Shown here: positions 39,316 to 57,066 of the stretch, piece after piece
How positions within the stretch are numbered: position 1 is the first letter of the stretch
Layout: each line of letters begins with the position of its first letter
From: an uncultured Planctomycetia bacterium
GTDB lineage: Bacteria > Planctomycetota > UBA8108 > UBA1146
DNA length: 64,000 nucleotides
Reading direction: 5' to 3'
Assembly (NCBI GenBank): GCA_964422295.1
Contig: CAYRAM010000002.1
Span: 24,052 to 88,051 of the forward strand
Program-made: the position numbers and the translations under genes
The notes under the pieces: model-generated
The model's input: the letters and a program-made list of their open reading frames with translations, nothing else
Told to the model about the DNA's origin: nothing
Databases searched by the model: none

Positions 39316-40380
39316 ATGTCCAGCAAGTCCAATCCACATACGTCGATGAGGTTGCCAAAGATCTGGTATTCGCTCCTCTGGCTGCATCTGTGCGGGTGCA
39401 TTGCGGGGTGTCAGGGATTTGGCCCTCAAGGTCGCGAGTTTTCCCAGGAATTGATGGAAGAACGCCTGAAGCACGGCCCGCTGCAGGCGGTGGCGAGTCC
39501 CCCTGAGTACATCCTTCTCGACGGTTATCCTCCGAAGTACAGGGATGCCATCGCGGAAGGGATTGATGCGGCACGCAGTTTCTTGGGGGAGTACGGGCCT
39601 GTGCGAGTCTATATCTTGGGTCAAACCGACGATGGGCCCGGCACCGAGATCGGCACCGAGACTGGTACCGAGGAAGGGCGTCAACTGTTTTTGGAAAGGT
39701 ATTGCCAGCCGCGCCGTCTCTCTGCACCTGATGGATACTCTGAAGATTGCGCGGGAGGACCGGGGCAACGACTGTTGGACGTGGCCAGTTCCGGCGGACA
39801 GGAAGCGTACCAATCACTCGTCATTCATACCGACCCACCGTATTCGGAATTGGTATTCATCAATGCTCACGATTGGGGAGCGACGGACATGCCGCTCAGG
39901 GGAATCCACGAATACTATCATGCATTTCAGTGTTCCCACCGCGAGGCCCCGGGTTGGTTGATGGAAGGGGGCGCAGTTTTTCACGAAGTCTGGATCGGCG
40001 CACAACATGGTTGGGTCGACTCCACACAAGCGATGCGCCGGTCCCTCAACAATGCACTGGAAGCGGTTGCCTTGGGAAAAGAGTTGTCGGACATGGAATA
40101 CACTCGTGATGTCCCCGCCGACATGGAGCCGTTTCACAGGCAAGTGGCCTATGACATGGGTTGTTGGGCGGTTGCATTCATGATCGGAAATTCAGAAGAG
40201 CGCAGTGTGGCCCAATTCAGGGACCAATTTTATCCACTGCTTCAAAAGTCGGGTTGGCGCAGCGCGGTTGCCGAGTATTGCGGGAGAGAGTCCCTGGCAA
40301 AGTTCTATCGTGACTTTGAGGTGTTCTTGCAACGACCGACTGCCGATCATATGGATCTCTATCGTAGCCTGCGCCCCTGA
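39316..40380 (+). CDS. Putative lipoprotein with an HExxH zinc-metallopeptidase-like motif.
   Basis: Lipobox-like 'LHLCGCIAGCQG' and an 'IHEYYHAFQ' HExxH motif. No further family assignment. Confidence 0.4.
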   Translation: MSSKSNPHTSMRLPKIWYSLLWLHLCGCIAGCQGFGPQGREFSQELMEERLKHGPLQAVASPPEYILLDGYPPKYRDAIAEGIDAARSFLGEYGPVRVYILGQTDDGPGTEIGTETGTEEGRQLFLERYCQPRRLSAPDGYSEDCAGGPGQRLLDVASSGGQEAYQSLVIHTDPPYSELVFINAHDWGATDMPLRGIHEYYHAFQCSHREAPGWLMEGGAVFHEVWIGAQHGWVDSTQAMRRSLNNALEAVALGKELSDMEYTRDVPADMEPFHRQVAYDMGCWAVAFMIGNSEERSVAQFRDQFYPLLQKSGWRSAVAEYCGRESLAKFYRDFEVFLQRPTADHMDLYRSLRP

Positions 40381-41944: not shown

Positions 41945-42537
41945 GCGTTTGAATCCTTCCAGGCGGATGAACGGGGAGAAGGAACGATGCCCCCCGTGCA
42001 GCGGCCAGCGGTGTTGAGTTTGCACCCGGATTCTGAGCGATGCGAGCAGATCGAAGCGACTCTACGGGTTTCCCGGGGCGATTCTGGTGGTTATTCTGGG
42101 GGGCGACCTGCGGGAAATTCGGGGATATGAATCGCGGGGATACCTCTGGGCCCATTTCTACGTGGTCCCGGTGGGTGGGGGAATTAAGTGTGAGTGGATC
42201 GGCCGTTGCCAGGAACCACCTGTGGTGATTCCACAAGGGACCGATCATTTCCAGCGGGGTATTCAAGCGTCTGATGGGAGTCAATTCCTGACCGACCAGC
42301 CCTGAGTGTACATTTTGAATCACTGGCGGTTTCACGGCCCGTTCGGTTCCGATGTACAGGGGAACCGGATTCGGGGCTCGAAGAGACAGCCATCGAGGGA
42401 GAACCGAACACTGTGTTTGCGGCGACATTGCGAACCAGGGTTAGGCGTGAACGAACATTGGATGGATCGATGAACATCGTTGTGGAAACGACTCTGGCAA
42501 GGAGTCCCGTTTCCTGCCCGGAAAAGAGCCAAGCTAT

Positions 42538-43869
42538 ATGACTTCAACAAAACTGTGGCTGATGATATTTCTTCTGCTGTGTCCGGGATGGGTCCATGGC
42601 CAATTGTTTGAGCGCCCTGTCGTACTCGAAGGAGTGAGTGCGATCTCTCCGGGTTCAACACAGGAGAATTTGACCATCACCATCCGGGGCGGTCGAATCA
42701 CCGAGATCTCTCAAACCGCAGACGTTCCGCTGATGGCCAAGAAAATCCCTGCCCAGGGCCTCTTCGCCACCGCCGGTCTCGTCGATCACGCATCAAACCT
42801 GACTCTTCCCGTCGGCGGAGCAGGTGCAGCGGAACAGTGGAGTTGGGATGGTTTTGACCGCTATTCGAGGGATGCCATCGAAGCCGTGCTCGCTGCGGGA
42901 GTGACGCGGGTTCACCTGGTCCCGGCGAGGGGCGAGGGAATCAGTGGCAGATCCTGCTGGGTATCGCTGAAAAATTCCCAAGGTGGGGGACACGGTGTTC
43001 TCATCGAAGAGGAAACAGCGCTGTGCGTCAATCTTGCAGCCGGGACTCCCGCCAACAGAATCCGATCCTACGCCAAAATCGTCGCCGCGTTTCGCGGTGC
43101 CCGCGATCGCAGGGACGCACTCGACAGTTACGAATCAGACCTGGAGGAATACCTCGAGGAACTCAAGAAATGGATTGAGGAGAATGACTCCGCAGAGGGT
43201 GACGAAGAAAAGGATGAAGAAAAGATGGACGGCGATGACGGGGACAAGGAGAAGTCGGATGATTCCGATAAAGCCCCTGAAAAGCCACGCCGACCCGATC
43301 TGGATGCCACCTCGGATATCCTGCTGCGCGCCGTCAATCACGAATTGCCGGTATTGATCACCGCCAGAAAGTCTGCGGATCTGATCAATGCCTGTGAACT
43401 GATCCGCGACTACGAACTGGATGCCATCATCCACGGTGCCGATGAGGCTGAGTTGGTGATCGATCAACTCAAAGAGTTGGAGGACGTTTCTTTCATCATC
43501 GATGAACCAGCCATGCCATTGGAGTCCTCGGGGTCGGGAGTCTTCACTTCCAGGCCTCGTCGCCCGTCCAGTCTGACGAAAGTTCTCGATGACCATGATT
43601 TTGATTGGGTCATCGGCAGTGGTGGATCGGGATCGGGATTATGGAGGATGACCCGCAAGATGACCGGGGGTGAGGCTCTCGCCAGTGCCCAGTCCACCAA
43701 CCTGCGTGGACTCAAGAGCCGAAGGGATTGGCTCAGGCCCGGCCAAAGGCACATCGTTTTGTGGAGTACCAATCCGGCAACGGATGCCTCAGCACGTCCA
43801 GTAAAAGTCCTCATCGACGGGGACGTGGTGTGGGAAGAAACCTCAGCAGCGAGAGGGGGACGTTTCTGA
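42538..43869 (+). CDS. Secreted amidohydrolase-superfamily paralog 1 of 8 (metal-binding HxH replaced by 'DHA').
   Basis: Signal peptide 'LWLMIFLLLCPGWVHG'. The N-terminal beta-sandwich 'ITIRGGRITEI', the HxH-region 'ATAGLVDHASN' and a C-terminal 'VKVLIDGDVVWEE' are present. An acidic KE-rich insert 'EENDSAEGDEEKDEEKMDGDDGDKEKSDDSDK' is in the middle. Confidence 0.6.
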   Translation: MTSTKLWLMIFLLLCPGWVHGQLFERPVVLEGVSAISPGSTQENLTITIRGGRITEISQTADVPLMAKKIPAQGLFATAGLVDHASNLTLPVGGAGAAEQWSWDGFDRYSRDAIEAVLAAGVTRVHLVPARGEGISGRSCWVSLKNSQGGGHGVLIEEETALCVNLAAGTPANRIRSYAKIVAAFRGARDRRDALDSYESDLEEYLEELKKWIEENDSAEGDEEKDEEKMDGDDGDKEKSDDSDKAPEKPRRPDLDATSDILLRAVNHELPVLITARKSADLINACELIRDYELDAIIHGADEAELVIDQLKELEDVSFIIDEPAMPLESSGSGVFTSRPRRPSSLTKVLDDHDFDWVIGSGGSGSGLWRMTRKMTGGEALASAQSTNLRGLKSRRDWLRPGQRHIVLWSTNPATDASARPVKVLIDGDVVWEETSAARGGRF

Positions 43870-45086
43870 TGCAGATCAAAACGATCCGACGTCACTGTTT
43901 CACACTACCGCAGCGTACTCAGGCGTCATTGCTGTTGATCACTTTGGCAGTTTTGTGGGTGATCGGTCAGCCTTTCGCTTTCGCCGGCAAACCGATGACG
44001 GTCATCACCGGGGCCGCCGTTCTGCTGCCGGATGGAACCGTCGAAGATAACTGGGCAGTATCGGTGGGCCCGGATGGCACCATCAGCGCCTTGCTTCCGG
44101 CCGAATCTTTCGATGACGATGTCGAGGAATGGATCACCTATCAGGCACCGGCTGGATCGGTATTGACACCGGGATTGCATGATTTGATGGGAGCGCTCGG
44201 GACAAGAGGGAAGCCTGGATCCCTGCGGGCAGGGAAGCTGCTCATCGATCCTGAATTGGATGCGGGTCACAGCTTTGACAGCAGTGATCCCTGGCTCGAT
44301 GAAGCTGCCAAACACGGGGTCCTCTACACCACACTGGCGGCTCAGCCACTGGGAGTGGTGAACGGAAAAAGCGCAACCTTCCTTTGCCAGACTTCTGGCG
44401 CAGCAAAGAGGCTCTCCGATGGAAAGACGATGCTGGCATTGGGAGATTCGGTTCTCTCGAATGATCGGATGCCCACCAGCAGAACTTCACTGCTGTCGAT
44501 TTGGCGCGAATGGATCGCTAGTCAGCCCTCGATTCTGAATTCCCCCGGAATCCTTTACGTCGCGGAGGGGATGGATCTCCGCCAAGCGCTGGGTCTGACG
44601 TGGTCAAAGGCGGCGATTCCGGTGTTTATTCACACCGGTGGCGATGCGCGTTCACCCCTGGAGCTATTGGGCAGGCTTGGCAAACAGTCCGGTCCTGTCC
44701 ACATGGTCGTGGGCCCCTTTCTCGAAGGGGGAGATCGGGCGCATCTGATGATGGCGGTGAGCGCTTCCCGGCAAGGAGTGGAATTGAGTTTTGCTGGAGG
44801 TCTTCCGGCGGGCCCCACGGATCACCTGCGTGGAAGTGCCGCGCTGGCGGTTGCAGCGGGAATGGATTCTACCGCAGCACGGAGAGCACTCTTCAGCAAT
44901 CCTGCCCACGTATCAGGAGCCTCTGATACCGGTGTGATTGCCGCAGGAAACAGGGCTGACATGGTGCTCTTCTCCGGAGATCCTCTCGACCCGGCCTCCG
45001 AGGTCATACACGTGTGGCGCGGGGGGCAGGGGATGCGAGTGGCCCTTCCCGGTGAAGTCGAAGAAATGGAGACGATCAGAAGATGA
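43869..45086 (+). CDS. Secreted amidohydrolase-superfamily paralog 2 ('LHD' in place of HxH).
   Basis: ATG 43869 overlaps the upstream TGA (TGATG). Signal peptide 'LLLITLAVLWVIGQPFAFA'. 'LTPGLHDLMGAL' and a C-terminal 'ADMVLFSGDPLDPASEVIHVWRGG' are present. Confidence 0.6.
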   Translation: MQIKTIRRHCFTLPQRTQASLLLITLAVLWVIGQPFAFAGKPMTVITGAAVLLPDGTVEDNWAVSVGPDGTISALLPAESFDDDVEEWITYQAPAGSVLTPGLHDLMGALGTRGKPGSLRAGKLLIDPELDAGHSFDSSDPWLDEAAKHGVLYTTLAAQPLGVVNGKSATFLCQTSGAAKRLSDGKTMLALGDSVLSNDRMPTSRTSLLSIWREWIASQPSILNSPGILYVAEGMDLRQALGLTWSKAAIPVFIHTGGDARSPLELLGRLGKQSGPVHMVVGPFLEGGDRAHLMMAVSASRQGVELSFAGGLPAGPTDHLRGSAALAVAAGMDSTAARRALFSNPAHVSGASDTGVIAAGNRADMVLFSGDPLDPASEVIHVWRGGQGMRVALPGEVEEMETIRR

Positions 45087-46621
45087 ACAATGCGCAACTG
45101 AACAGATATACACAGGTGATCCTGGCACTCGTTGTCATTTTGGGAGTGGCCCACGGGTCCGTCCACGGGAATGCCCAGGATTCCACTGATCCGGTCAACT
45201 CCTATGCAGTCAAGGCTGCCAAGGCTCATCTGGGTAATGGTCAAGTCGTCGAAAATGCCCTGATTGTCGTGCGCGATGGGCGTATCGAAAGCGTCACCGC
45301 CGGTGGAAGTGCTCCCGATGGGCTGACATTGATAGAAGTGACGGAAGTTACACCGGGACTGATCGATGCCAACGCCAAGATCGATGTCATGGATGCACTT
45401 CTTTATCCCACGGAGGACCCGCGGCTGACGATTCTCAGAGCGCTGGGGATGGCAGATCAATACCACGGCGGCGACGTTTGCCCCTGCGGTACGGTGTGTC
45501 CTGCGGTGACTTTGCACCGCCACGATGAAAGTTGCCTCTTCTGCGGTTATCCAGAGCATGATCCCCACTCCCATGCACACGATGAGGAGGAGGAGGAAGA
45601 AGAACTCCTGGAACTTGAGAAGCAGGCGATGGCCGCAGGAGTTCCTGCAGAGAGCGGACTGGTTACCGATCAGTCCAGTGAAGTGGTTCCCCAATTTGAA
45701 ATCATGGATGGCATCGATCACGGTTCCAAAGACTTCGATCGTTTGCTGAAGGAAGGTGTGACGACCGTCTACATCAGCCCCGATGGATCCGCCGTGATCG
45801 GATCACGGGGTGCGACGATGAAAACCGGTGGCCCGGTGCTGGACAGGTACATGGGAATCGGCTCGGTGAAAACCGTTGTTGGAAGTGACTCCTATCGCTA
45901 CGGAACGCGTAATCGCAGTCCCTTCCGTGGCTTTGTCACGATTTACACTCGCCGTCCCGATTCCAGAATGGGCGTGGGCTGGGTCTTCCGCAGGGCATTT
46001 TATGATGCCCTCCTGAGAGCCCGCGGTTTGGAGCCGATCGGGGCGGACAAGACCTCGGCGGAAGCATCGAAAGTCTTGCAGGGAGTCCTCGCCGGTGAAA
46101 TTCCGATGCGAATTCAGGCCCGTACCGGCAGCGACATCGAGACGGCTTACCGTTTCGCCAAGGAGTTCGGTGTTTCCTTCACCCTGGAAGACCCGGTTGA
46201 AGCGTGGAAGCGTGTCGATCTCCTCAAGGAAGCGGGGACACCCGTGGTCTTCGGGCCGATTTTCGACCAGCCCAGCGGGATTACCGCCGGGTCCGGAGAG
46301 ATGCGGAATCGTCGTTTGCATACGGTTCGAGATCTTTCCAATGCCGGAATCCCAATGGCGTTGAGTGCCCAGGACCTGCGTGGTGAAGAAGGTCTGGCCC
46401 GGCAGGCGATGCTGGCGATTCGTTATGGAGTGGATCCGCAAGAAGCGCTGCGCATGGTGACCCAATATCCCGCTCAGTTATTGGGAATAGAAGATGAAGT
46501 GGGAACTTTGGAATCGGGCCGCAGAGCGGACCTGGTTTTCTGGAATGGTTCCCCATTCTCGGCATTGACCAGGATCGAAAAGGTCATGCTGGACGGCGTA
46601 ATTTCATACGAAAGAAACTGA
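45083..46621 (+). CDS. Secreted amidohydrolase-superfamily paralog 3 ('IDA').
   Basis: ATGA overlap with paralog 2. Signal peptide 'VILALVVILGVAHGSVHG'. 'VTPGLIDANAKID', a poly-Glu insert 'HDEEEEEEELLELEK' and a C-terminal 'ADLVFWNGSPFSALTRIEKVMLDGVI' are present. Confidence 0.6.
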   Translation: MNNAQLNRYTQVILALVVILGVAHGSVHGNAQDSTDPVNSYAVKAAKAHLGNGQVVENALIVVRDGRIESVTAGGSAPDGLTLIEVTEVTPGLIDANAKIDVMDALLYPTEDPRLTILRALGMADQYHGGDVCPCGTVCPAVTLHRHDESCLFCGYPEHDPHSHAHDEEEEEEELLELEKQAMAAGVPAESGLVTDQSSEVVPQFEIMDGIDHGSKDFDRLLKEGVTTVYISPDGSAVIGSRGATMKTGGPVLDRYMGIGSVKTVVGSDSYRYGTRNRSPFRGFVTIYTRRPDSRMGVGWVFRRAFYDALLRARGLEPIGADKTSAEASKVLQGVLAGEIPMRIQARTGSDIETAYRFAKEFGVSFTLEDPVEAWKRVDLLKEAGTPVVFGPIFDQPSGITAGSGEMRNRRLHTVRDLSNAGIPMALSAQDLRGEEGLARQAMLAIRYGVDPQEALRMVTQYPAQLLGIEDEVGTLESGRRADLVFWNGSPFSALTRIEKVMLDGVISYERN

Positions 46622-46670
46622 TGATTTTCCCGCCATCGAAGTGGCGGGTGCATTGAAACCGAGGTATTCG

Positions 46671-48212
46671 ATGTCGACCTTGATGAACAAACTTCTGGCC
46701 CTGGTGACTGCACTGCTATTGATATGCCAGCATGGCACACTGGAGGCACAATCCTCTCCCAAGGTCGCCTTGACCGGGGGCAAAATTTTGACCGTCTCCG
46801 GGGCTCCTGTCGTCGACGGCACCATCCTGATCGAAAACGGGATCATTCAGGCTGTCGGCGATGGATCGATGGCGATTCCCTACGATGCCATGGAAGTGGA
46901 TTGCAGCGGGATGATCCTTGCACCCGGGTTGGTCGATGCCCACAACCCGGCAGGGCTGGATATCCCCAATGAAAATCTGTCGGTAGCACCCTTTGTCGAC
47001 GTCTATGACGCCATCGATCCCTCCCGCTTCTTCTTTGAAAATTCCCTGCGCAATGGCGTTTCTACGGTTCATGTCATGCAAGGCAACAACTGTGTTGTCG
47101 GGGGAGTCAGTCGGGTCGTTCACCCCATCGGACTGTCTCCAGACGAGATGACCCGTTTGCCAGGGATTGCTCTCAAGATGTCGGTATCCCCCAAGGGAGG
47201 ATACGACCGTCTGAGACAGCGCGCAGAGCTTCGGGAAGTCTTCAGCGAGTTTGATCGTTGGCATCAGGATCTTGCCGAAACCCGTTACGGCCAGGAAGCG
47301 GAAAACAGTGATGAGCTGGATCCTCTGCCACCTGCGGAAGCCCGTGAAAAGGGCAAGTCGTTGATTCGGGAAGAGGACCTGGATGACCGCCATCGCCATC
47401 TGGCTTACCTCAGTGATGGAAAACTCGGTGCCTGGCTGCACTGTGGTTCAGCGACGGATGTGGCTCCCGCCCTCGAGATGATCGAGCAGAGGGGGTGGAC
47501 AGGCAGGGCTGTCCTTGTCCTGTCGGGAGATGCCCCCCTCGCCGCCGACGAAATCGCGGCGGCAAAGGTTCCCGTCGTATTGGACAGCAACCTGATCCAC
47601 CGGGAGCGGGATGCCATCAGTGGAGAAGTTGAGGAGACCTTCATTCCTGAGGTGATGCGCAGAAAGCGGATTCGATTTGCTCTTCAGAGTGGACGCAGCA
47701 ATGTCATTCCTGAAAATCTTCTGACCTACCAGGCTGCTCGCCTCGTCCGCAACGGCATGTCCCAGGAGCGGGCGCTTCGGGTGATCACTCTCGGTGCCGC
47801 AGAGATCTGTGGAGTGGCTGATCAATACGGCTCCATCGACCAGGGCAAAGTCGCAAATATCGTCATGTGGACCGGCAATCCTCTCGAGATGACCTCTTGG
47901 GTTCAGAAGGTCTGGATCGAAGGAATCCTCGCCTACGACCGGGAGAAGGACGCACGGCTGGAGAGACTTTTCCCCGATGCCCCTGAAATAGAGGCTGTCG
48001 GTGAGCCCCTTGCAGAGGATGAAACTGCCGCCGAGACACCTGCGGAGGCACCTGAAGGAGATGGGGAAGAGGGAGAAGCGGCCGAGGATGGGTCCAAGTC
48101 CGATGGAGAAGATGGAGCAGAGCCCCTGAAAAAGGATCGCAAGAGTGGTGAGGATTCTCCGAAGCCGACCCCAGCTCCCGAACCGGACTCCGGAAACAAG
48201 GGAGGCCTCTAG
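46671..48212 (+). CDS. Secreted amidohydrolase-superfamily paralog 4 ('DAHN', one His retained).
   Basis: ATG 46671 is preceded by GAGGT. Signal peptide 'LLALVTALLLICQHG'. 'LAPGLVDAHNPAG' and a C-terminal 'ANIVMWTGNPLEMTSWVQKVWIEGIL', followed by an acidic tail 'EDETAAETPAEAPEGDGEEGEAAEDGSKSDGEDG'. Confidence 0.6.
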   Translation: MSTLMNKLLALVTALLLICQHGTLEAQSSPKVALTGGKILTVSGAPVVDGTILIENGIIQAVGDGSMAIPYDAMEVDCSGMILAPGLVDAHNPAGLDIPNENLSVAPFVDVYDAIDPSRFFFENSLRNGVSTVHVMQGNNCVVGGVSRVVHPIGLSPDEMTRLPGIALKMSVSPKGGYDRLRQRAELREVFSEFDRWHQDLAETRYGQEAENSDELDPLPPAEAREKGKSLIREEDLDDRHRHLAYLSDGKLGAWLHCGSATDVAPALEMIEQRGWTGRAVLVLSGDAPLAADEIAAAKVPVVLDSNLIHRERDAISGEVEETFIPEVMRRKRIRFALQSGRSNVIPENLLTYQAARLVRNGMSQERALRVITLGAAEICGVADQYGSIDQGKVANIVMWTGNPLEMTSWVQKVWIEGILAYDREKDARLERLFPDAPEIEAVGEPLAEDETAAETPAEAPEGDGEEGEAAEDGSKSDGEDGAEPLKKDRKSGEDSPKPTPAPEPDSGNKGGL

Positions 48213-48213
48213 G

Positions 48214-50943
48214 ATGCTGACAGGCAAGTGGACCCGGCTGACCGGGTACCTTCTTTTCTTCGCATGGGTGTCCCTGTTTCCTGCGGGGGAGTTGCTGGCT
48301 GGCGGTGACTTCGTTCTGCGGGCGGGTCATCTGCACACGGGGCAGCAAGGGATCGTCGATGGAGCCATCGTCGTTCGCGACGGCAAGGTTGTTGCGAGTG
48401 GGCCTTGGCAAGAGGTGTCATCCCAATTGCCGGGAGATCTGCCGGTGATGCACTGGCCCGATGCCTATGTCACCCCGGGAATCGTCGCCGCGTCCAGTGC
48501 TGTCGTGGGACCTCACCGGGGTCAAGAGTCGATTTCGGCGGAGTATCGTGCGGTGGATGGATACGACACTTATGGCGATCACCGCCCGCTGCTCGAAACC
48601 GGGGTCACCACCATTCATGTCAATCCCGGTGAGCATCGCTTGATGTCGGGCCAAGGTGGTGTCGTCAAATTGGTCGGCGCTCCGTCAGAGCGGGTTTTGT
48701 CCAGGTCCTCCGATCTGTCGATCTCCCTGAGGGATCAGGTGGACAGTCCCGATCCCCTGCTGGAGATCCCCTTCCCGGCTTCCAGTGACGTTCAGATAGA
48801 ACCACCCACTGCGCAGAGGCCCGGAAGTAGAATCGATCGTCTTCTCGCATTGAAAGAGGCGCTCGACGAGGCCAAGGAGGATCGTTGGGCCCATGGCCAC
48901 TTGGCGGATCATTGGCAGTCCGGAGTTCCCTTGCGGATCTCCGCCGACGCCACTCCCGACATTCAGGGGATTTTGCAGATGCTGGAAACGGAAGATCGCA
49001 ACGGATATCTGGTGACCGATGCCGTCATCCAGGGAATGGAAGACCGGCTTGCCGCCGCAGGGGTCCCCGTCGTTTTGCGAATGAGTGGTCCCCAGGGAGA
49101 TGTTCCCAATGGGGGAGTCCTCAAGCCCCATGGCTTTCCAAAGTTGAATGGAAATCCTCCATGGGCATTGGCCCCCCCCGGGGATGACCTCTCGAGCATG
49201 GGGTGGGCGATCACCGAAGCGGCTGCCCACATGGAATCCCCCGAATCGGTGATCCCGTGGGTGACCCACAATGCAGCAACCATCCTCGGAGTCGCCGATC
49301 GGGTCGGCCATCTGGAGGTGGGGGCCGATGCGGATGTCGTCGTCTGGAATGATGCTCCGTGGGAGATTCATGCCCGACCCCTCGAAGTTTTCATCGACGG
49401 TTTGCGGGCGTGGCAGCCGGATGAAGGAAGTGCGACGGTGATCAGTGCGGACACCATCTGGATCTCACCACAGGAGCAGATCACCGGTGGTCAAGTACTG
49501 CTGGAGGATGGCAAGATCACCGCTGTCGGCCACATGGTTCCGCATCCACCCCATTGTCAAATTATCGATGCCGGCCCGGGCAGTTTTATGACTCCCGGAT
49601 TCATCGACTGCTACGGACATCTGGGATTGGACGGGGAAACGGCTTCGATGGGTACCGGTGATCGACTCCATCGTCTGCTTGGAGTGACCGGTCCCCGGGA
49701 GCACAGCGTCGCACTCGCAGGAGTCACCAGCCAACTTATGGCACCGCGTCGATTGCAGAGGGGGGCCGGGATCGGTGTTCTGGCGAAGACCTCCGGCTCC
49801 AGTCGTGCACAACGGATCGCCGATGATTATTCGATTCTCCTGCTGGAGATCTCCGATTCGGGCTTCAGTGCTACCAAACGGCTTTTCGATCAGGGTGCTA
49901 AGTACCTAGAGACGTGGCAAAAGTACGAGAAAGATCTTGCCGAGTGGAAGAAGAAGAAGGCCGCAGGGGAAAAGATCGAAAAGAGCAAAGAGGAGGAGGT
50001 CGAGGAGGTTCCCGAAGAGAAAGAGGATGATCCTTTGACCGGAATCTGGGAGATGACCGTCAGTGGAGGTCCGATTCCAGAACCTGAGACGGCAACGATT
50101 TCGATCACGCTGAACGGATCAGAGTGGGAAGGCAGGGTCATCGAACCCGTACCCCCGGTCCAGATCAGGATTGTCGGTACCCTCGAAGGGACGACTCTCG
50201 TGGGAACCATCGAAGTTCCCGACGGTGACCTGCCCGATACCCCAAAGATCGAGGCTGAACTTTCAGGAGAAGATTCACTCACGGGAAAGATTTCGATCCT
50301 GACCTTTTCTGCCGATCTCACGGGAGTGCGAACGAGCAAGGAAGCGAAGACTTTCAAAGTCACCCGTCGCAAGAAGCAGGCGGACGACGGCAGACCGATG
50401 CCTCCGCGGGTGAGGGACACCCTGGAACCGATCCGCACGGTTCTGGAGAAGAAGACCCCCGTACTCGTGGCAGTTCGGGGATTCAACTCTTTGCCTGCGG
50501 TCATCGACTATTTCACGGAGAAAAAAATCCCGTTTGCGGTCCAACTCGATGAAAACATGAGATTCCACAGGGACCTGCTGATTGAGAAAAAAGTCCCGGT
50601 CCTGCTTCCTGAGGAGATGAGTTTCGAGGCCGCGGATAACTCCTATATGCCTTCGACGTTCCTGGGCAGGGCGGGGGTCACAGTGGGCTTCAGAAGTTCT
50701 GCAGGAGATGGTGCCCGACGCTTGCCATTCCGTGTCTGGAATGAGGTTGCCAATGGCATGGCTCCTGATGCAGCACTCACCGCGCTGACGACGGGCGCAG
50801 CCCATGTCGTGGGAGCGCATGATCGAATCGGCCAAATCCGCGAGGGATTGGCTGCGGATCTCCTGATTTGGAAGGGGCACCCCTTCGAAGCGGGAAGTCA
50901 TCTCGAAAGGGTCTTTGTCAACGGAGAGGAGGTCCACCGATGA
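48214..50943 (+). CDS. Secreted tandem double-module amidohydrolase-superfamily paralog 5 (909 aa).
   Basis: The ATG at 48214 is 2 nt after the upstream TAG. RBS AAGGGAGG. Signal peptide 'LLFFAWVSLFPAG'. Module 1 has 'VTPGIVAASSAV', module 2 has 'MTPGFIDCYGHLGLDG', and the C-terminus reads 'ADLLIWKGHPFEAGSHLERVFVNGEEV'. Confidence 0.6.
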   Translation: MLTGKWTRLTGYLLFFAWVSLFPAGELLAGGDFVLRAGHLHTGQQGIVDGAIVVRDGKVVASGPWQEVSSQLPGDLPVMHWPDAYVTPGIVAASSAVVGPHRGQESISAEYRAVDGYDTYGDHRPLLETGVTTIHVNPGEHRLMSGQGGVVKLVGAPSERVLSRSSDLSISLRDQVDSPDPLLEIPFPASSDVQIEPPTAQRPGSRIDRLLALKEALDEAKEDRWAHGHLADHWQSGVPLRISADATPDIQGILQMLETEDRNGYLVTDAVIQGMEDRLAAAGVPVVLRMSGPQGDVPNGGVLKPHGFPKLNGNPPWALAPPGDDLSSMGWAITEAAAHMESPESVIPWVTHNAATILGVADRVGHLEVGADADVVVWNDAPWEIHARPLEVFIDGLRAWQPDEGSATVISADTIWISPQEQITGGQVLLEDGKITAVGHMVPHPPHCQIIDAGPGSFMTPGFIDCYGHLGLDGETASMGTGDRLHRLLGVTGPREHSVALAGVTSQLMAPRRLQRGAGIGVLAKTSGSSRAQRIADDYSILLLEISDSGFSATKRLFDQGAKYLETWQKYEKDLAEWKKKKAAGEKIEKSKEEEVEEVPEEKEDDPLTGIWEMTVSGGPIPEPETATISITLNGSEWEGRVIEPVPPVQIRIVGTLEGTTLVGTIEVPDGDLPDTPKIEAELSGEDSLTGKISILTFSADLTGVRTSKEAKTFKVTRRKKQADDGRPMPPRVRDTLEPIRTVLEKKTPVLVAVRGFNSLPAVIDYFTEKKIPFAVQLDENMRFHRDLLIEKKVPVLLPEEMSFEAADNSYMPSTFLGRAGVTVGFRSSAGDGARRLPFRVWNEVANGMAPDAALTALTTGAAHVVGAHDRIGQIREGLAADLLIWKGHPFEAGSHLERVFVNGEEVHR

Positions 50944-52181
50944 GGATCTCTACAGTCATGAATTGCCTGATCCTGTTGCTCTTTATCTTCGGTGTTCCAG
51001 CCGGCTTGGTCCACGGGGATACCTTGGCCTTCAAAGTCGGCAAGGTGGTGACCTTCGATGACGACGAGCGGGTGATCAACAATGCCACCGTCATCGTCAA
51101 GGATGGCAAGATCGCAGAGCTGGGCAAAACCAAGGACATCCAAATCCCGGCGGGTGCACGAGTGATCGAGCACCCGGACTTGTGGCTGGTTCCCGGATTT
51201 GTCGAGTGCCACAACCACACCGGTGGCGGCTCCCCCGATCTGCACGATTACGTTTATCTGACCAATCCCGGCTTGCGAACCCTTGAATCGATCGTTCCCG
51301 ACAACCCGGAGATGATTCGCGCCCGCGCCGGAGGAGTGACCACCGTGCTGACGATCCCGGGAAGCGGCAACAACATGTCCGGCTTCGGAACGATTTTGAA
51401 GACGGCGGGTGGTTCGGTGGAGGAGTCGGTGCTCAAGGCGCCCGGCTCGTTGAAGATCGCCCAGGCAGGGAACCCGGAGCGTTACTTTTACGGTGTCGGT
51501 CGATCCTTCATGAACTTCAATACTCGGCAGACTCTTCGTAAAGCCAAAGACTACCATTTGGCCAGAACCGAGTGGGAGGAGGGCAGGCTCGCCGTGGAGC
51601 CCGCCTTCAATCTGAACTGGGAAGAATTCCGTCCCCTCTTCCGTCGGGAGACTGTGGCTTCGGTTCACACCCAGATTTATCAGGTATTGATGACCACCGT
51701 CAAAATGGTGGCGGGTGAGTTCAACATCCGAACGGTGCTGGATCACTCGACCTTTGACGCATGGAAAGTGGCCCCGCTGGTCAATGCGGATGAGTCGATC
51801 TACACCATCAATGGCCCTCGACAGTTGCACTATGACCGCACACAGAGAAGGCTGATGGGAAATGCTGCTCGCTGGTGGCAAGGTGGAGTCCGTAAACTGG
51901 GGATCAACACCGACTCGCCAGTGGTTCCCCAGGAAGAACTCGCTTATCAGGCGAGCATGGCTTGTTACTACGGTTGGAAGCCTTACGAAGCTCTGAAAGG
52001 CATCACCCGAATCCCTGCAGAAGCACTGATGCTGGAACATCGTCTCGGAAGTATTTCTGTCGGTCTGGATGCCGATTTCTGCCTGTGGACCGGGGATCCC
52101 ATCGATCCGAGATCTTCCTGTGAGGTGACTGTCATCGATGGTGAAGTCACCTACGAGGCCAGTGAGAAGAGGGTCTTCTAA
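50940..52181 (+). CDS. Secreted amidohydrolase-superfamily paralog 6, the only one with an intact H-x-H metal-binding motif.
   Basis: ATGA overlap. Signal peptide 'LILLLFIFGVPAGLVHG'. 'LVPGFVECHNHTGGG' (H-x-H) and a C-terminal 'ADFCLWTGDPIDPRSSCEVTVIDGEVTY'. Confidence 0.65.
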   Translation: MRISTVMNCLILLLFIFGVPAGLVHGDTLAFKVGKVVTFDDDERVINNATVIVKDGKIAELGKTKDIQIPAGARVIEHPDLWLVPGFVECHNHTGGGSPDLHDYVYLTNPGLRTLESIVPDNPEMIRARAGGVTTVLTIPGSGNNMSGFGTILKTAGGSVEESVLKAPGSLKIAQAGNPERYFYGVGRSFMNFNTRQTLRKAKDYHLARTEWEEGRLAVEPAFNLNWEEFRPLFRRETVASVHTQIYQVLMTTVKMVAGEFNIRTVLDHSTFDAWKVAPLVNADESIYTINGPRQLHYDRTQRRLMGNAARWWQGGVRKLGINTDSPVVPQEELAYQASMACYYGWKPYEALKGITRIPAEALMLEHRLGSISVGLDADFCLWTGDPIDPRSSCEVTVIDGEVTYEASEKRVF

Positions 52182-53476
52182 TGAAATTCAGCAGATTCGC
52201 CCTGGTTCTTCCCCTCCTGTGCCTGATCAGCATTGAAGCGTTTGCCAGTGATCGTGTAACCGTGATCAAGGCGGGTTCGGTGATCACAGGGACCGGTGAA
52301 ACGATCAGTCCCGGAGAAGTCGTCATCGAAGATGGCAAAATCACGCTGGTCGGATCCCAATTGGAGATTCCTGATAACGCCAGGATCATCGACGCCCGCA
52401 ATCAAACATTGATGCCTGGGTTGGTCCTTGCACAAACCAGCCAAGGCTTGCTCGGCGGCAGGGTCAGTGGGGTCGGTTGTGATCAAACCGTACTTACACG
52501 GTGGGTCGAATCGGAAATGGATTGGGAAGCATTTCTCGAAGCAGGCGTGGTGGCTGCAGCGTTCGTTCCTGCTGGAACCGGTTTTCATGGACAGGCAATC
52601 GTTGTTCATACCGGTCCCGAAGGGGGAGATCGAATCCTTCGCGAGTCCGTTTACTTGCCCTTGGCGGTGACCGGTTCAACATCCTTGCATCGGACGGTCC
52701 AACAGGCTTTCGATGGGGCCAGGGGTGAGATCGAGAAGGTCAAGAAAGCGCGCGAAAAATGGGATAAGGAGCAGGAGGAGGCCAAGAAAAAAGCGAAAGA
52801 GGAAAAGGAGTCAGAAGAGGATGCCGCTGCGGACTCCAAGGAAAAAGAGAAAGAGGAACCAAAGGAGTTCAAGGCCCCGGAAATCCGACCTTCCCTGAAA
52901 CCGCTGGTAGCGATTTTGGAAGAGAAATCCACCGCCATGCCGATGGTGGTGTCCATCAGTTCTCCCGGGGCGATGTTGCATGTCGATGCTGCCCTGGAAA
53001 GTGTCAAAGAATTGGAAGACCGGGACCCCCAAGCCATCTTTGTCCTTCCCGGCAGCAGAAACGGTGCGTTTCACGTAGTTGTCGATCAGTTGATCGAGCG
53101 CAAAGCGACGGTGTTGATCCCACCCGGAATGAGTGCATTGCCCGATACTTATTTCCGTTACCATGTTCCGGCGGCACTCTCGAGGGGGGGCTGTGACGTG
53201 ATCACCCTTCCGCGATCGGATAATCCCGGCGGCATGAGAGAACTCCCCGGTTTTCTTGCGGAACAGGTTCGTTATGGCATGTCGGCGGAAGACGCCATCG
53301 CCTCACTGACTTCCAAGCCGGCCAAGTTCCTTGGCCTGGGTGACCGCATGGGAACCATCGAAGAGGGCAAGGATGCCCATTTGATTGTGCTCAATGGATC
53401 GCTTCTTGATCCAGGGGCCCATGTCATGAAAACCATCATCTCCGGTAAAGTTGTCTGGGATCGGGAGGATCGATAA
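52181..53476 (+). CDS. Secreted amidohydrolase-superfamily paralog 7 (no His in the HxH region).
   Basis: TAATG overlap. Signal peptide 'FALVLPLLCLISIEAFA'. 'LMPGLVLAQTSQG', a KE-rich insert 'KAREKWDKEQEEAKKKAKEEKESEEDAAADSKEKEKEEPKE' and a C-terminal 'AHLIVLNGSLLDPGAHVMKTIISGKVVW'. Confidence 0.6.
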   Translation: MKFSRFALVLPLLCLISIEAFASDRVTVIKAGSVITGTGETISPGEVVIEDGKITLVGSQLEIPDNARIIDARNQTLMPGLVLAQTSQGLLGGRVSGVGCDQTVLTRWVESEMDWEAFLEAGVVAAAFVPAGTGFHGQAIVVHTGPEGGDRILRESVYLPLAVTGSTSLHRTVQQAFDGARGEIEKVKKAREKWDKEQEEAKKKAKEEKESEEDAAADSKEKEKEEPKEFKAPEIRPSLKPLVAILEEKSTAMPMVVSISSPGAMLHVDAALESVKELEDRDPQAIFVLPGSRNGAFHVVVDQLIERKATVLIPPGMSALPDTYFRYHVPAALSRGGCDVITLPRSDNPGGMRELPGFLAEQVRYGMSAEDAIASLTSKPAKFLGLGDRMGTIEEGKDAHLIVLNGSLLDPGAHVMKTIISGKVVWDREDR

Positions 53477-54876
53477 TGACACGCCCTATTCGCACCCTTA
53501 CGGCCATGCTCGCGTTCGTCATCGTATTCACGGATTTTCCTGTGATTCCAGGTGGATTCAGTCTCTCCGGAAGTATCTGTGAAGCTCAGGATCCGCCTCG
53601 ACGCCGCAGAGGTCGTCGCAGGCCGACCCCTCCTCCGACTCCTGCTCCCGAACCTGAGAAGAAGGAAGTCATCGCTTCCGATTCGGAAGATGAATACCTC
53701 GTCATCAAGGGAGCAACCATTCACACGGTGACTGGTGGAACTCATAGGAATGGAACCCTGATCAGCAAAAACGGCAAGATCTATCAAATCGTTGCCGGTC
53801 CCGTTGATGCTCCAGAGGGGGCAGAGATCATCGAAGCGGCGGGCCATCACATTTATCCCGGACTCGTGGCTTTCCGATCATCCGGTCTCGTCGGATCGGG
53901 AGAGGCTGAGAAGAGCCAGGATCCTTTTGGCCTCAACACCACCATGGGTTTGGCAGCAGGGATCACTTCTACATGGAACGGATCCCGAGTTACCAAATTG
54001 GTTCATGGTAGCCTCGAAGATCTGACGATCCGCCCAAAGTCCTTCAGCAGGATCAATTACAGTTATCGTAATTCGCGCGGGCGCAAGGATCTGCGGCAGG
54101 CGTTTGACCGGGTGCTGGAACATCTGCGTGCTCTGGAGCGCCATGAGGAGGAGAAGAAGGAGAACCCCGAGGCAAAGCCGCCGGAGGACAAATGGATCAA
54201 GGGGGTCTTTGCCGTCGTCCGCAGTTTGCTGACAGGGGAGAGTAAGGCTTTGGTGCGAACGAGATCGATCGCAGAGATTCGAGAGTATTCTTCCCTGGCC
54301 CGGAAATACGGCTTTGACATCGTTTTTGAAGGTGCCGAAGAGGGGTGGATCGATCCCGGAGCCCTCTCCCGATGCGGGGCAAGTGCCATTATTTCACCGC
54401 GTTCCCGTGTGAATGCCGACGATGAACTGAATCGGGAGAGTGGATCGAGCATCGAGAATGGAAAGATTCTACACGATGCCGGTGTTCCTCTTGTGATCAT
54501 CCCTGGCAGTACCGGAATTGCCCTTTGGGGTCTCGCCGGCAGGGATCTGTCCCACCTTCCCCTCGAGGCCGCTTTCGCCGTCCGTGGAGGGTTGCCGGAA
54601 CAGGTCGCCATCGAGGCGATCACCATCGAGCCGGCGAGGCTGCTCGGAGTTGCCGATCGGGTGGGTTCTCTCGAAGTGGGAAAAGATTCCGACTTTATCA
54701 TCACCGATGGGGATCTGCTCGATTACATGACCTTGGTTCGGTGGGCGATCGTCAATGGCAAGATTCAATACGACAAGGAAAAAGAAGGCATTCTGGACCA
54801 CATTAGACCGGGTGGTGATCAAGACGCTCCTGCGCCCGATGACCATTGGCCTCGGCGCTTGGGTGATCCCCTCTAG
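53476..54876 (+). CDS. Secreted amidohydrolase-superfamily paralog 8 (no His in the HxH region).
   Basis: TAATG overlap. RBS GGGAGGA. Signal peptide 'LTAMLAFVIVFTDF', followed by a basic/Pro-rich 'PPRRRRGRRRPTPPPTPAPEPE'. 'IYPGLVAFRSSGL' and a C-terminal 'SDFIITDGDLLDYMTLVRWAIVNGKIQY'. Confidence 0.6.
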   Translation: MTRPIRTLTAMLAFVIVFTDFPVIPGGFSLSGSICEAQDPPRRRRGRRRPTPPPTPAPEPEKKEVIASDSEDEYLVIKGATIHTVTGGTHRNGTLISKNGKIYQIVAGPVDAPEGAEIIEAAGHHIYPGLVAFRSSGLVGSGEAEKSQDPFGLNTTMGLAAGITSTWNGSRVTKLVHGSLEDLTIRPKSFSRINYSYRNSRGRKDLRQAFDRVLEHLRALERHEEEKKENPEAKPPEDKWIKGVFAVVRSLLTGESKALVRTRSIAEIREYSSLARKYGFDIVFEGAEEGWIDPGALSRCGASAIISPRSRVNADDELNRESGSSIENGKILHDAGVPLVIIPGSTGIALWGLAGRDLSHLPLEAAFAVRGGLPEQVAIEAITIEPARLLGVADRVGSLEVGKDSDFIITDGDLLDYMTLVRWAIVNGKIQYDKEKEGILDHIRPGGDQDAPAPDDHWPRRLGDPL

Positions 54877-55010
54877 GAGGCGATCTCCCTTTCCTGACAT
54901 AAGTTCTTTGACCCTTCTTCCGGGATTGACACTTTTGGAGGAAAGGCAAGAATTGAACTCACAGATGTACCCCTGCTACCTTGCCATCCTCTGTGAGAAA
55001 TGGTCCCTGA

Positions 55011-57056
55011 ATGCACTCCCCAAATCCCCGGATACTCCGGTTTTTTGCCCTGATTCTGTGCCTATGGGCTTGGAATCCGTATGGCGAGGTTTGCGGCCAG
55101 TGTGTTGAAGAAGACCTTCCTGTTTTCGGGATCAATCCTGGTGATCGGGTGGGCCGTTCGGTTGCGGTCAGCGGCGGAAGGATCTTCGTTGGAGCGATAG
55201 GGGATGATGGGGGTGGATTCCTCAGTGGAAGCGTCAGGTCCTTTGTGCGCTCAACATCAGGGTATCAACTGGAACACAATTTCAATGGCCAATCAGGAGC
55301 AGAATACGGAACTTCCATCGCCGCTGATGGAAATTGGCTGGCGATCGGAGCTGCGGGCCAGGGCTATATCGAGATGTGGAAAAGGGATCGATTCGGATGG
55401 AACCATCACTCCACAATTATCGATTGGAATGGTCACGACGGCGACGGATTTGCCAGCAGCCTTGACTTTAATGATGACCTGCTCGCTGTAGGGAGCCCCA
55501 CGTACATGACAGACATCGGTGAAGCAGGATGTGTGACGATCTGGCGCAGAAACGCCATGGGATTTTGGCTCCTGGAGGAGCGGCTCCTGGTGGATGATCG
55601 AATCGAAGGAGATGACTTTGGAACTTCGGTATCGCTCGACCCCAACGAGGGACTGCTGGTGGGAGCACCGGGGAGAGATGCCAATGGAATCGACAGCGGA
55701 ATCGCAATCCTCTACAACGGGGGACCCGATGGCTGGTCAGAGTCCTCCCGATTTGGTTCCACCGTCGTCAATCCCGGAGACCGATTTGGCACATCGGTGA
55801 GTTTGCGTTCAAATCATGCTCTCATCGGAAGTCCGTACTCCAATTTTGCAGGCCCACTTGCGGGCAAAGTCATTTCCTATCGCAAAGCCGGCTCCATTTG
55901 GATTCTGCTTCCCTATTTGACCCCTGAGCCGGGATCAACCGGCACCGGATTCGGAGCGACCTTGGCGATCGACGGTAATCTGTTGGTCGTGGGAGCACCG
56001 ATGGATACCGGGAATGAAGCGATGCCATCGGGGAGTATAAATATCTACCGATACAATCAGGACTGGATATTGGAAAGCACCCACCAAGGCAATCTCGGTT
56101 CATTTTTGGGGACTGCATTGGCTCTTCACAAAGGAGTTGTTGTTGCAGGAGCACCGATGGACTCCACAGCAGCCGCACTTGGGGGTGGCGTCAAGTACGT
56201 CGTTTCGGGGGACAATGACTGTGACGGCGATGGGGAAAAAGATACCTGTGAGATCTTCAGTGGTGGTGAGCAGGATTGTGATCTCGATGGGATACCGGAT
56301 CAATGCGCGATAAGCCAAGGGCTTGTTGCCGATTGCGATAATGATCTCATCCCTGACAGTTGCTCAACACTTTCCGGGGGTGTTTCTGACTGTGATGCGG
56401 ATGGGGTCCCTGATTCTTGCTCGACAGTTCTGGGGCTGGTCTCGGATTGCAACGAGGATCAAATCCCCGATGTATGCCAGGAAGACTGCAATCAAAATGG
56501 TGATCCGGATGTTTGTGAAGTAATGCACGAAATTGCGGATTGTGATCAAAATGGTTTGGTTGATGAATGTGAAATCGCGGATGGCGGTCTCTCGGATTGT
56601 GATGGAAACGGACTTCCCGACATTTGTGAAGAAGACTGCGATGAAGACGGTTTACCCGACATTTGTGCGGTACTCTCGGGAATCGTAGAGGACTGCAATG
56701 ATAATGAGATTCCGGATGAGTGTGATCTATTGGATCCGCTTCTGAACTCAAACGGGAATGAACTTGTCGATGAGTGTGAGCCCCAATTTATTCGGGGAGA
56801 TGCGGATGGAGATCCGGGTGTCAGATTGGCTGATGCGATTCTGTTGCTCTCGCGGGTCTTTGGGGAAGTCTCCATTCCCGATTGTGACGAAGCCGCAGAT
56901 GCGAATGGAGATGGGGCTTTGGATATCTCCGATGGACTGTATCTGTTGTTTTATGAGTTTGCGGCTGGGGAGGCTCCTCCCGCGCCCTTTCCCGACTGCG
57001 GGATAGCACCTCCGGAGGCGCAACTCCCCTGCACGGAGCATCCGTCCTGCCCTTGA
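55011..57056 (+). CDS. Secreted protein with FG-GAP-like beta-propeller repeats, about 10 tandem TSP3-like Ca-binding 'DCDxDGIPDxC' repeats and a C-terminal dockerin-like module.
   Basis: Signal peptide 'FFALILCLWAWNP'. FG-GAP-like units 'FGTSVSLDPNEGLLVGAPGRDANGIDSGIAILY' and 'FGATLAIDGNLLVVGAPMD'. A repeat array from about 56205 to 56760 reads 'DCDGDGEKDTCE...DCDLDGIPDQCA...DCDNDLIPDSCS...DCDADGVPDSCS...'. The C-terminus reads 'FIRGDADGDPGVRLADAILLLSRVF...ADANGDGALDISDGLYLLFYEF...PFPDCGIAPPEAQLPC'. Confidence 0.65.
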   Translation: MHSPNPRILRFFALILCLWAWNPYGEVCGQCVEEDLPVFGINPGDRVGRSVAVSGGRIFVGAIGDDGGGFLSGSVRSFVRSTSGYQLEHNFNGQSGAEYGTSIAADGNWLAIGAAGQGYIEMWKRDRFGWNHHSTIIDWNGHDGDGFASSLDFNDDLLAVGSPTYMTDIGEAGCVTIWRRNAMGFWLLEERLLVDDRIEGDDFGTSVSLDPNEGLLVGAPGRDANGIDSGIAILYNGGPDGWSESSRFGSTVVNPGDRFGTSVSLRSNHALIGSPYSNFAGPLAGKVISYRKAGSIWILLPYLTPEPGSTGTGFGATLAIDGNLLVVGAPMDTGNEAMPSGSINIYRYNQDWILESTHQGNLGSFLGTALALHKGVVVAGAPMDSTAAALGGGVKYVVSGDNDCDGDGEKDTCEIFSGGEQDCDLDGIPDQCAISQGLVADCDNDLIPDSCSTLSGGVSDCDADGVPDSCSTVLGLVSDCNEDQIPDVCQEDCNQNGDPDVCEVMHEIADCDQNGLVDECEIADGGLSDCDGNGLPDICEEDCDEDGLPDICAVLSGIVEDCNDNEIPDECDLLDPLLNSNGNELVDECEPQFIRGDADGDPGVRLADAILLLSRVFGEVSIPDCDEAADANGDGALDISDGLYLLFYEFAAGEAPPAPFPDCGIAPPEAQLPCTEHPSCP

Positions 57057-57066
57057 AGCAGATCGT

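Follow-up and report, generated by a model that had tools for sequence, protein, structure and literature searches.

An ancient operon of exported amidohydrolase paralogs in Planctomycetota with one presumed catalytic subunit

What could a planctomycete gain from eight adjacent genes for exported relatives of one enzyme, when a single module among them appears to be catalytically competent? The question is raised by a 64-kb stretch of contig CAYRAM010000002.1 from an uncultured Planctomycetia bacterium (the whole stretch is hereafter called the window), in which positions 42538-54876 of the forward strand hold eight intact open reading frames (ORFs) that correspond to nine paralogous, full-length amidohydrolase modules. 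We lean slightly towards the answer that the eight exported products would form one obligate periplasmic hetero-oligomer, derived from a homo-oligomeric ancestor, with A6 as its sole catalytic subunit type. The genes and modules are designated as follows, gene A5 comprising the modules A5a and A5b.

42538-43869, forward strand: A1, 443 amino acids (aa); signal peptide at ca. residues 1-21; non-catalytic module with a central K/E/D-rich insert at ca. residues 197-255
43869-45086, forward strand: A2, 405 aa; signal peptide; non-catalytic module
45083-46621, forward strand: A3, 512 aa; signal peptide; non-catalytic module with a Cys/His-rich insert
46671-48212, forward strand: A4, 513 aa; signal peptide; non-catalytic module with an acidic C-terminal tail
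48214-50943, forward strand: A5 as a whole, 909 aa, two modules
48214-49419, forward strand: A5a, residues 1-402 of A5, with the only signal peptide of this protein; non-catalytic module
49420-50943, forward strand: A5b, residues 403-909 of A5; non-catalytic module
50940-52181, forward strand: A6, 413 aa; signal peptide; presumed catalytic subunit
52181-53476, forward strand: A7, 431 aa; signal peptide; non-catalytic module with a central K/E-rich insert at ca. residues 180-235
53476-54876, forward strand: A8, 466 aa; signal peptide followed by an Arg/Pro-rich linker; non-catalytic module

Gene organisation and export signals

The eight same-strand ORFs described in an initial annotation of this DNA were all found intact, and the gene overlaps it had listed were as stated. 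From A1 to A8 the junctions measure -1 (TGATG), -4 (ATGA), +49, +1, -4 (ATGA), -1 (TAATG) and -1 (TAATG) nucleotides (nt); there are seven of them and not eight, and the gap between A4 and A5 is 1 nt instead of the 2 nt first given. A GAGG motif lies 8 nt 5' of the A4 ATG. No tenth paralog was found within the window. A public copy of the same metagenome contig (JGI 3300002231, 267 kb; L001) differs from window positions 43226-60456 by 14 extra single bases, mostly A or G, and by 8 substitutions or Ns; several of these insertions split the A4 and A5 gene calls, and it is the window version that fits the ortholog lengths.

Each protein had been proposed to carry its own signal peptide, and all eight indeed display the features expected of Sec-exported products, namely a positively charged n-region, a hydrophobic core (h-region) of 10-15 residues and an AxA-like (small-x-small) site with no lipobox, these calls having been made by a heuristic and by sequence inspection, not by SignalP. 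An N-terminal hydrophobic core also occurs in 79-96% of the orthologs in each of the eight families. Membrane anchors, lipoboxes and sorting domains were not seen in any of the eight products upon sequence inspection. Because export signals occur without anchors, the data point to a location in the periplasm, which is the compartment we infer, or to release from the cell.

Fold and subfamily of the nine modules

Pfam models Amidohydro_1 and Amidohydro_3 matched A3 to A8 above cut-off and A2 below the gathering cut-off, covering only the C-terminal ca. 60 residues, and A1 had no Pfam match. When ortholog profiles were compared with hhalign, all nine modules were mutually homologous over 306-396 columns, with probabilities of 99.8-100%. 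Pfam and profile-profile comparisons place the nine modules in one superfamily, as had been proposed, and not in unrelated folds; the PG(L/F)(V/I)D strand at the position of the metal-binding HxH and the C-terminal G.DAD.V.W motif were also as described. The fold of this superfamily is a (beta/alpha)8 barrel flanked by a composite beta-sandwich built from the N- and C-terminal segments, and the structures matched by the AlphaFold2 models of A6 and A5 are all amidohydrolases.

Within the superfamily, full-length similarity to PDB 3OOQ, a Thermotoga maritima MSB8 amidohydrolase deposited as a structural-genomics entry of unknown function, is clearly above that to other amidohydrolase families. 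Full-length matches to 3OOQ were obtained with A6 (E=6e-42) and A4 (E=1.3e-29), and the hidden Markov model (HMM) of the A1 family recognised the 3OOQ sequence with E=6e-60. Run against all family HMMs, this sequence scored almost equally on A1 to A6 (166-212 bits), the scores for A7 and A8 being lower. The A5 model (predicted local distance difference test, pLDDT, 89.1; predicted template modelling score, pTM, 0.76 over 909 residues) likewise retrieved 3OOQ as the best Foldseek hit, with E=4e-21 against 6e-10 for the next. Since this similarity is shared by A4, A5, A6 and the family HMMs, the whole set, as judged from sequences and models, radiates from a 3OOQ-type ancestor from which the nine modules descend.

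None of the curated NCBIfam models came close to its cut-off for any product. For the Caulobacter-type Xaa-Pro dipeptidase (NF051886, cut-off 500 bits) the best score was that of A6 with 71.3 bits, and for the imidazolonepropionase HutI (TIGR01224, cut-off 298 bits) that of A5 with 59 bits. In public databases the relatives are annotated as "amidohydrolase family protein" or, generically, as "imidazolonepropionase-like".

A complete metal site in A6 only

In the binuclear subtype of the superfamily, the metal ligands comprise an HxH after strand 1, a Lys after strand 4, a His after each of strands 5 and 6 and an Asp after strand 8. This set is complete only in A6, which has H91 and H93 (51210-51218), K172 (51453-51455), H243 (51666-51668), H269 (51744-51746) and D325 (51912-51914); in a joint alignment these six residues coincide with the ligands of 3OOQ, and they are invariant in 81/81 A6 orthologs. 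In A1, A2, A3, A4, A5a, A5b, A7 and A8 the full six-ligand set occurs in no lineage. Four of these modules (A1, A5a, A7 and A8) have kept zero ligands, A3 keeps the beta4 Lys (47/66 orthologs) and an acidic beta8 residue, Asp or Glu (66/66), A4 only the first His (60/69) and the beta4 Lys (64/69), and A5b only the second His of the HxH (71/72). The initial view that the set is mostly pseudo-enzymatic is thus borne out and can be sharpened: exactly one module type has the full ligand set, and A6 is presumed to be the sole working binuclear-metal hydrolase.

It is conceivable that several of the modules regarded here as dead are enzymes with non-canonical or mononuclear sites, together serving a multi-step or multi-substrate hydrolytic pathway. 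The partial ligands conserved in A3, A4 and A5b would fit such a scheme, as would the A2-like module of a lineage with fused genes (see below), which still has the HxH and the Lys. Outside A6, however, at most two or three of the six ligands are present, with zero in the four modules named above, and to our knowledge these partial sets are unlike every known amidohydrolase subtype (I-IX); we consider this explanation improbable.

A6 is also the slowest-evolving subunit. In the deepest comparison initially made, orthologs were 60% identical for A6, 50% for A4, the second most conserved, 41% for A3, 38% for both A5 and A7, and 31% for both A1 and A2, and the identity of 31-50% retained by the dead modules at this depth indicates that they too are under purifying selection. 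The nearest characterised relatives of A6 (18-21% identity) are carboxypeptidases and prolidases, which cut C-terminal amide or peptide bonds, and A6 therefore most likely hydrolyses an amide or peptide C-N bond. With such low identity and scores far under the curated cut-offs, its substrate cannot be assigned.

Conservation and age of the operon

An A6 alignment, scanned against one genome per species, retrieved 174 relatives, the best 80 loci of which were analysed by classifying their ORFs against the reference modules. These 80 loci belong to metagenome-assembled genomes (MAGs) labelled Phycisphaerae/Phycisphaerales, Pirellulales/Pirellulaceae, Planctomycetia or Planctomycetota, with two bins that are probably mislabelled. 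The order A1-A2-A3-A4-A5(a+b)-A6-A7-A8 on one strand, with exactly one ortholog per family, is found in 56/80 loci; a further 21/80 have the block cut by contig ends and the exceptions amount to 3/80, one of which is a read-through of A4 into A5. The genes are thus not scattered among relatives, a point on which the initial proposal could have failed. Detectable homologs of A1 are few and all belong to Planctomycetota MAGs; on their contigs the eight genes recur, unchanged in size, even where A1 is only 31% identical and the upstream gene is a different one.

Tight junctions recur in these relatives. A start at most 5 nt from the upstream stop was counted in 50/59 cases for A1/A2, 45/62 for A2/A3, 17/64 for A3/A4, 60/66 for A4/A5, 73/76 for A5/A6, 49/79 for A6/A7 and 75/76 for A7/A8, the nearest start codon having been chosen at each junction, a rule that is biased toward small gaps. 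The median gap between A3 and A4 is 45 nt.

The paralogs are highly diverged, as first described, with 22-27% identity to one another, and in a tree of eight divergent genomes every family forms a clade of its own, which implies that the duplications predate the split of the major Planctomycetota classes. A recent duplication giving near-identical copies, which would have undermined the initial proposal, is ruled out by the same two observations. The wider possibility that the array is trivial or artefactual, arising from recent tandem duplication or from chance ORFs, has a negligible likelihood in view of this divergence, of the positional orthologs in more than 80 genomes and of the agreement between window ORFs and ortholog lengths, and nothing was seen that would speak for it. 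A neighbour-joining tree of the nine modules is star-like, and hhalign yields only weak groupings (A3 with A5a, A4 with A7, A5b with A7). The best explanation of these data is an ancient operon that has been vertically inherited within Planctomycetota.

The flanks of the block consist of unrelated housekeeping genes that change between lineages, and the block therefore appears autonomous and self-contained. The pdxST genes adjoin it in only 19 loci, all from related clades, and their place is taken elsewhere by MlaE, PilZ/S8 peptidase, ScpB, KARI or MgtE; a functional tie to pdxST or to other neighbours was rejected on account of these varying flanks.

Fusions between adjacent modules

The two-module fusion represented by A5 occurs in all loci that cover this gene, and A5-like fusions of 900-1000 aa were also found in more than 100 cluster representatives (50% identity clusters). 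The pTM of the A5 model quoted above suggests that A5a and A5b adopt a defined arrangement relative to each other.

An exhaustive profile search further revealed three-module proteins of 1262 and 1343 aa that are colinear with A1, A2 and A3. They have one N-terminal signal peptide, and Pro/Ala/Ser-rich linkers stand at the places where internal signal peptides would be expected. In this sister lineage, whose operon is more compact, the A1-A2-A3 fusion is followed by an A4-like gene and then by a two-module A5-like gene, where both contigs end. The two fused operons lie on independent contigs:

L088, 4759-12613: fused sister operon
L089, 3556-11751: fused sister operon

The three-module fusions are 50% identical to each other, and their independent sources together with this divergence indicate that the fusion is real. 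A metagenome scan with an alignment of the two fusions gave no match, and a single-sequence metagenome scan with a three-module fusion gave one locus (L090). On a related metagenome contig the eight genes are unfused, and the A6 encoded there possesses all ligands.

Inserts and additional domains

According to the initial annotation, most of the proteins carry a central acidic Lys/Glu-rich insert. Strong central K/E/D-rich inserts were confirmed in A1, A5b and A7 only; the charged stretch of A4 is an acidic C-terminal tail, A8 has a moderate insert, and such stretches are missing from A2, A3 and A6. A3 contains an insert of another type, variable and rich in Cys and His (ca. 45380-45652, residues ca. 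100-190), that comes after strand beta1, the strand normally carrying the HxH, and so lies beside the former active site. Within it, a CxxCG motif is found in 57-58/66 orthologs, His145 in 61/66 and Cys139 in 46/66, and the insert may represent a loop that binds metal or forms a disulfide at the mouth of the former active site. In A5b, a long helix of 33 residues (551-583) leads through a charged disordered linker to a confidently modelled all-beta domain of ca. 100 residues (610-708; nt 50041-50337). This beta domain is missing in some A5 homologs (ca. 820-860 aa, matched in two stretches) and the charged linkers are expanded in others. These extras of the dead modules (the charged inserts, the A4 tail, the beta domain and the A3 loop) are lineage-conserved and could serve in binding, gating or assembly.

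Such elements also bear on whether the system is chiefly a structural assembly, for instance a periplasmic or cell-envelope scaffold, to which the activity of A6 would be secondary (in maturation or turnover of the scaffold). A scaffold would agree with eight of the nine modules being non-catalytic, with long, charged, low-complexity inserts or tails being common, and with a secreted FG-GAP/dockerin-like protein being often encoded 3' of the operon (see below). Conservation, however, is highest in A6, whose ligands are invariant, and this argues for catalysis as the selected function, and the lack of anchors, lipoboxes and sorting domains noted above adds to the difficulty, making a mainly structural role very improbable.

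Do the products assemble?

The structure 3OOQ comprises 10 chains and is listed as a homomeric dihedral complex in a benchmark of complexes with 10-30 chains. Ten chains with dihedral symmetry imply a D5 decamer, which makes a large oligomer ancestral in the subfamily. According to the model that we favour, the eight Sec-exported products would come together in the periplasm, once exported, as a single hetero-oligomeric particle. Its only working binuclear-metal hydrolase would be A6, with an HxH, two His, an Asp and a Lys expected to be carboxylated, while the remaining eight modules, as catalytically dead paralogs, would have been turned into obligate structural, substrate-binding or regulatory subunits; the particle would have derived from a homo-oligomer like that of Thermotoga 3OOQ through gene duplication and loss of active sites. 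A hetero-oligomer offers the best explanation because fixed one-to-one orthology, tight coupling and gene fusions are met together with an oligomeric ancestor; in particular, a fixed order with one ortholog per family is the pattern of obligate complex subunits, and not that of paralogs diversified for different substrates.

The alternative that deserves the most attention, unlikely as it seems to us, is a co-regulated toolbox in which no particle is formed, A6 being a stand-alone, probably homo-oligomeric enzyme and the eight dead modules separate ligand binders, for instance for peptides or amides, in one pathway. That every protein has a separate signal peptide and is exported separately fits this picture well. 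So does the strong divergence of the paralogs, whose differing inserts (the Cys-rich loop of A3, the beta domain of A5b, the charged inserts of A1, A5b and A7) could mean different ligands, and the enzymes Cc2672 and the Sargasso-Sea prolidases, which are relatives, are homo-oligomers. Batteries of this kind normally gain and lose members, however, whereas neither the copy number nor the order of these genes varies from Phycisphaerae to Pirellulales; moreover, fusions of two and of three modules exist, and every module keeps the 3OOQ architecture over its full length.

Several points weigh against the hetero-oligomer itself. Nine modules leave the ten positions of a D5 particle unfilled, so that the stoichiometry is unexplained. 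The eight chains are exported separately through Sec and assembly must follow translocation; the coupling of the genes would then not act through co-translational assembly and may reflect mere operon compaction. The fusions join only neighbouring genes and prove co-function more than any specific interface, and the partial ligand sets of A3, A4 and A5b leave room for activities of their own. All carriers are uncultured MAGs. Co-assembly with fixed stoichiometry, the core of the initial interpretation, is what we infer from the fixed order, the coupling, the fusions and the oligomeric homolog; that interpretation as a whole is partly supported. Lastly, a chromosome-level MAG labelled Gemmatimonadota (L051; CP070666.1, 5740-14385) appears to have only A4 to A8 at the locus, preceded by two forward-strand ORFs that are unrelated to A1-A3, and the match of its A8 homolog ends at profile position 384; the operon may be genuinely truncated there, or the fault may lie in assembly or binning.

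A more specific form of the hetero-oligomer, which may be termed a paralog ring, would be a pseudo-D5, decamer-like periplasmic particle evolved from a 3OOQ-type homodecamer, with fixed positions for the paralogs and catalysis at the A6 positions only. Such a particle might, for example, be laid out as four heterodimers, including the fused A5a-A5b, plus a pair of A6. We regard this ring as doubtful, and the attractive idea that A6 is present twice to fill the ten positions is speculative.

Comparison with known systems

The fold and the probable chemistry of these proteins are known; what is new is the combination of nine fixed paralogs, one of them active and all exported, with conservation across the phylum. 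The arrangement had been thought to be undescribed and, in agreement with this, no description was found in the literature searched: full-text searches returned nothing on this operon, on the biochemistry of 3OOQ or on bacterial assemblies of multiple amidohydrolase pseudo-enzyme paralogs.

The system differs from 3OOQ, a single protein whose homo-oligomer has an intact site in every subunit, in consisting of nine diverged paralogs, eight of which have no site and all of which are exported; 3OOQ has no signal peptide, its alignment beginning at the mature start of A6. Homo-oligomers of active subunits are also formed by the carboxypeptidases and prolidases of the COG1228 type (Caulobacter Cc2672/3MTW; Sargasso-Sea Sgx9260b, Sgx9260c/3MKV, 3FEQ and 3N2C; ochratoxinase 4C5Y). 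A6 is not a member of that group, since it reaches 71 bits on NF051886 against the cut-off of 500, and their specificity is not transferable to it.

Dead members of the superfamily are known in other settings. The animal CRMP/DPYSL proteins are dihydropyrimidinase-like pseudo-enzymes, but they are cytosolic, belong to the dihydropyrimidinase subfamily and have neither a catalytic partner subunit nor an operon. Inactive dihydroorotase-like domains (Pseudomonas PyrC' with aspartate transcarbamoylase; fungal CAD-like, 5NNL) are partnered by an unrelated enzyme and not by an active paralog, and these cases involve one pseudo-subunit in cytoplasmic complexes. The logic proposed here, in which a homo-oligomer becomes a hetero-oligomer of paralogs at fixed positions with catalysis in some subunits, is that of the beta ring of the eukaryotic 20S proteasome and of CCT/TRiC; those particles, however, have an unrelated fold, are eukaryotic or archaeal and have an experimentally established assembly, whereas assembly is proposed here.

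Bacterial complexes made of many diverged, mostly dead paralogs of one enzyme are rare, and textbook cases of a change from homo- to fixed hetero-oligomer are mostly eukaryotic. If co-assembly holds true, the operon would thus provide a tractable bacterial model for the entrenchment of pseudo-enzyme subunits, for the assembly of a multi-paralog particle after Sec export and for the benefit that eight dead neighbours bring to a single active site. The large and widespread block of "amidohydrolase family protein" annotations in marine Planctomycetota would likewise acquire a role, and the orphan structure 3OOQ a biological context. Were the paralog ring correct, it would represent a prokaryotic counterpart of the ring diversification of proteasomes and chaperonins, with pseudo-enzymes making up 8/9 module types and with assembly outside the cytoplasm.

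Leader region and neighbouring genes

The pdxS and pdxT genes were confirmed to lie upstream of the block in divergent orientation. The long leader previously reported at 512 bp does measure 512 nt when counted from the longest pdxS ORF, but 593 nt if the start assigned in the public contig is used. This spacer and the 3' side of the block contain two features conserved in relatives or recurrent among them:

42022-42186, forward strand: candidate structured RNA in the pdxS-A1 spacer, conserved in relatives
55011-57056, forward strand: secreted FG-GAP repeat protein (Pfam FG-GAP_2, 2e-35)

The consensus fold of the RNA amounts to -34.7 kcal/mol on the forward strand versus -14.8 kcal/mol on the reverse strand, the forward fold making use of invariant G-U pairs, in place of which the reverse strand would have A-C mismatches. 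A covariance model gave full-length matches at the same place and on the same strand in 13 loci from two clades, the second being more distant. In an alignment of 11 sequences, 90.9% of the cells were paired versus 82.3% after shuffling, with 0/500 shuffles reaching the observed value, and covariation was 0.35 versus 0.21 (again 0/500), slid partners being paired to at most 71%; support comes from two clades only and hence represents few independent events. Between 41800 and 42700 no relevant Rfam family, whether a riboswitch or another known cis-regulatory RNA, was detected at E<=1. Positions 42022-42186 are accordingly listed as a candidate conserved structured RNA with modest covariation support. 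It may be part of the 5' leader of the operon, or else act in the regulation of pdxS or be an independent small RNA, and this unclassified RNA could add a regulatory handle. Scans for promoters and terminators gave counts at or below the shuffled expectation. A sigma-70-like hexamer pair was noticed at 54926-54953, between A8 and the FG-GAP gene.

The protein encoded at 55011-57056 combines an FG-GAP beta-propeller, with many Asp-rich CDxDGxPDxC-like repeats, and a dockerin-like C-terminus. Full-length homologs are encoded at most 700 nt 3' of A8 in 19/80 loci, including two distant ones with 34-36% identity. The gene is missing from most Phycisphaerae loci and is regarded as a frequent neighbour outside the conserved core.

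Finally, two other regions of the window may be mentioned. A forward-strand ORF of 354 aa (39316-40380) has a signal-peptide-like N-terminus and no Pfam match. On the reverse strand, positions 57067-63002 hold an AddA/AddB-like pair, in which a helicase of the UvrD type, with a PD-(D/E)XK nuclease, precedes a PD-(D/E)XK protein; the pair is also syntenic in the close clade.

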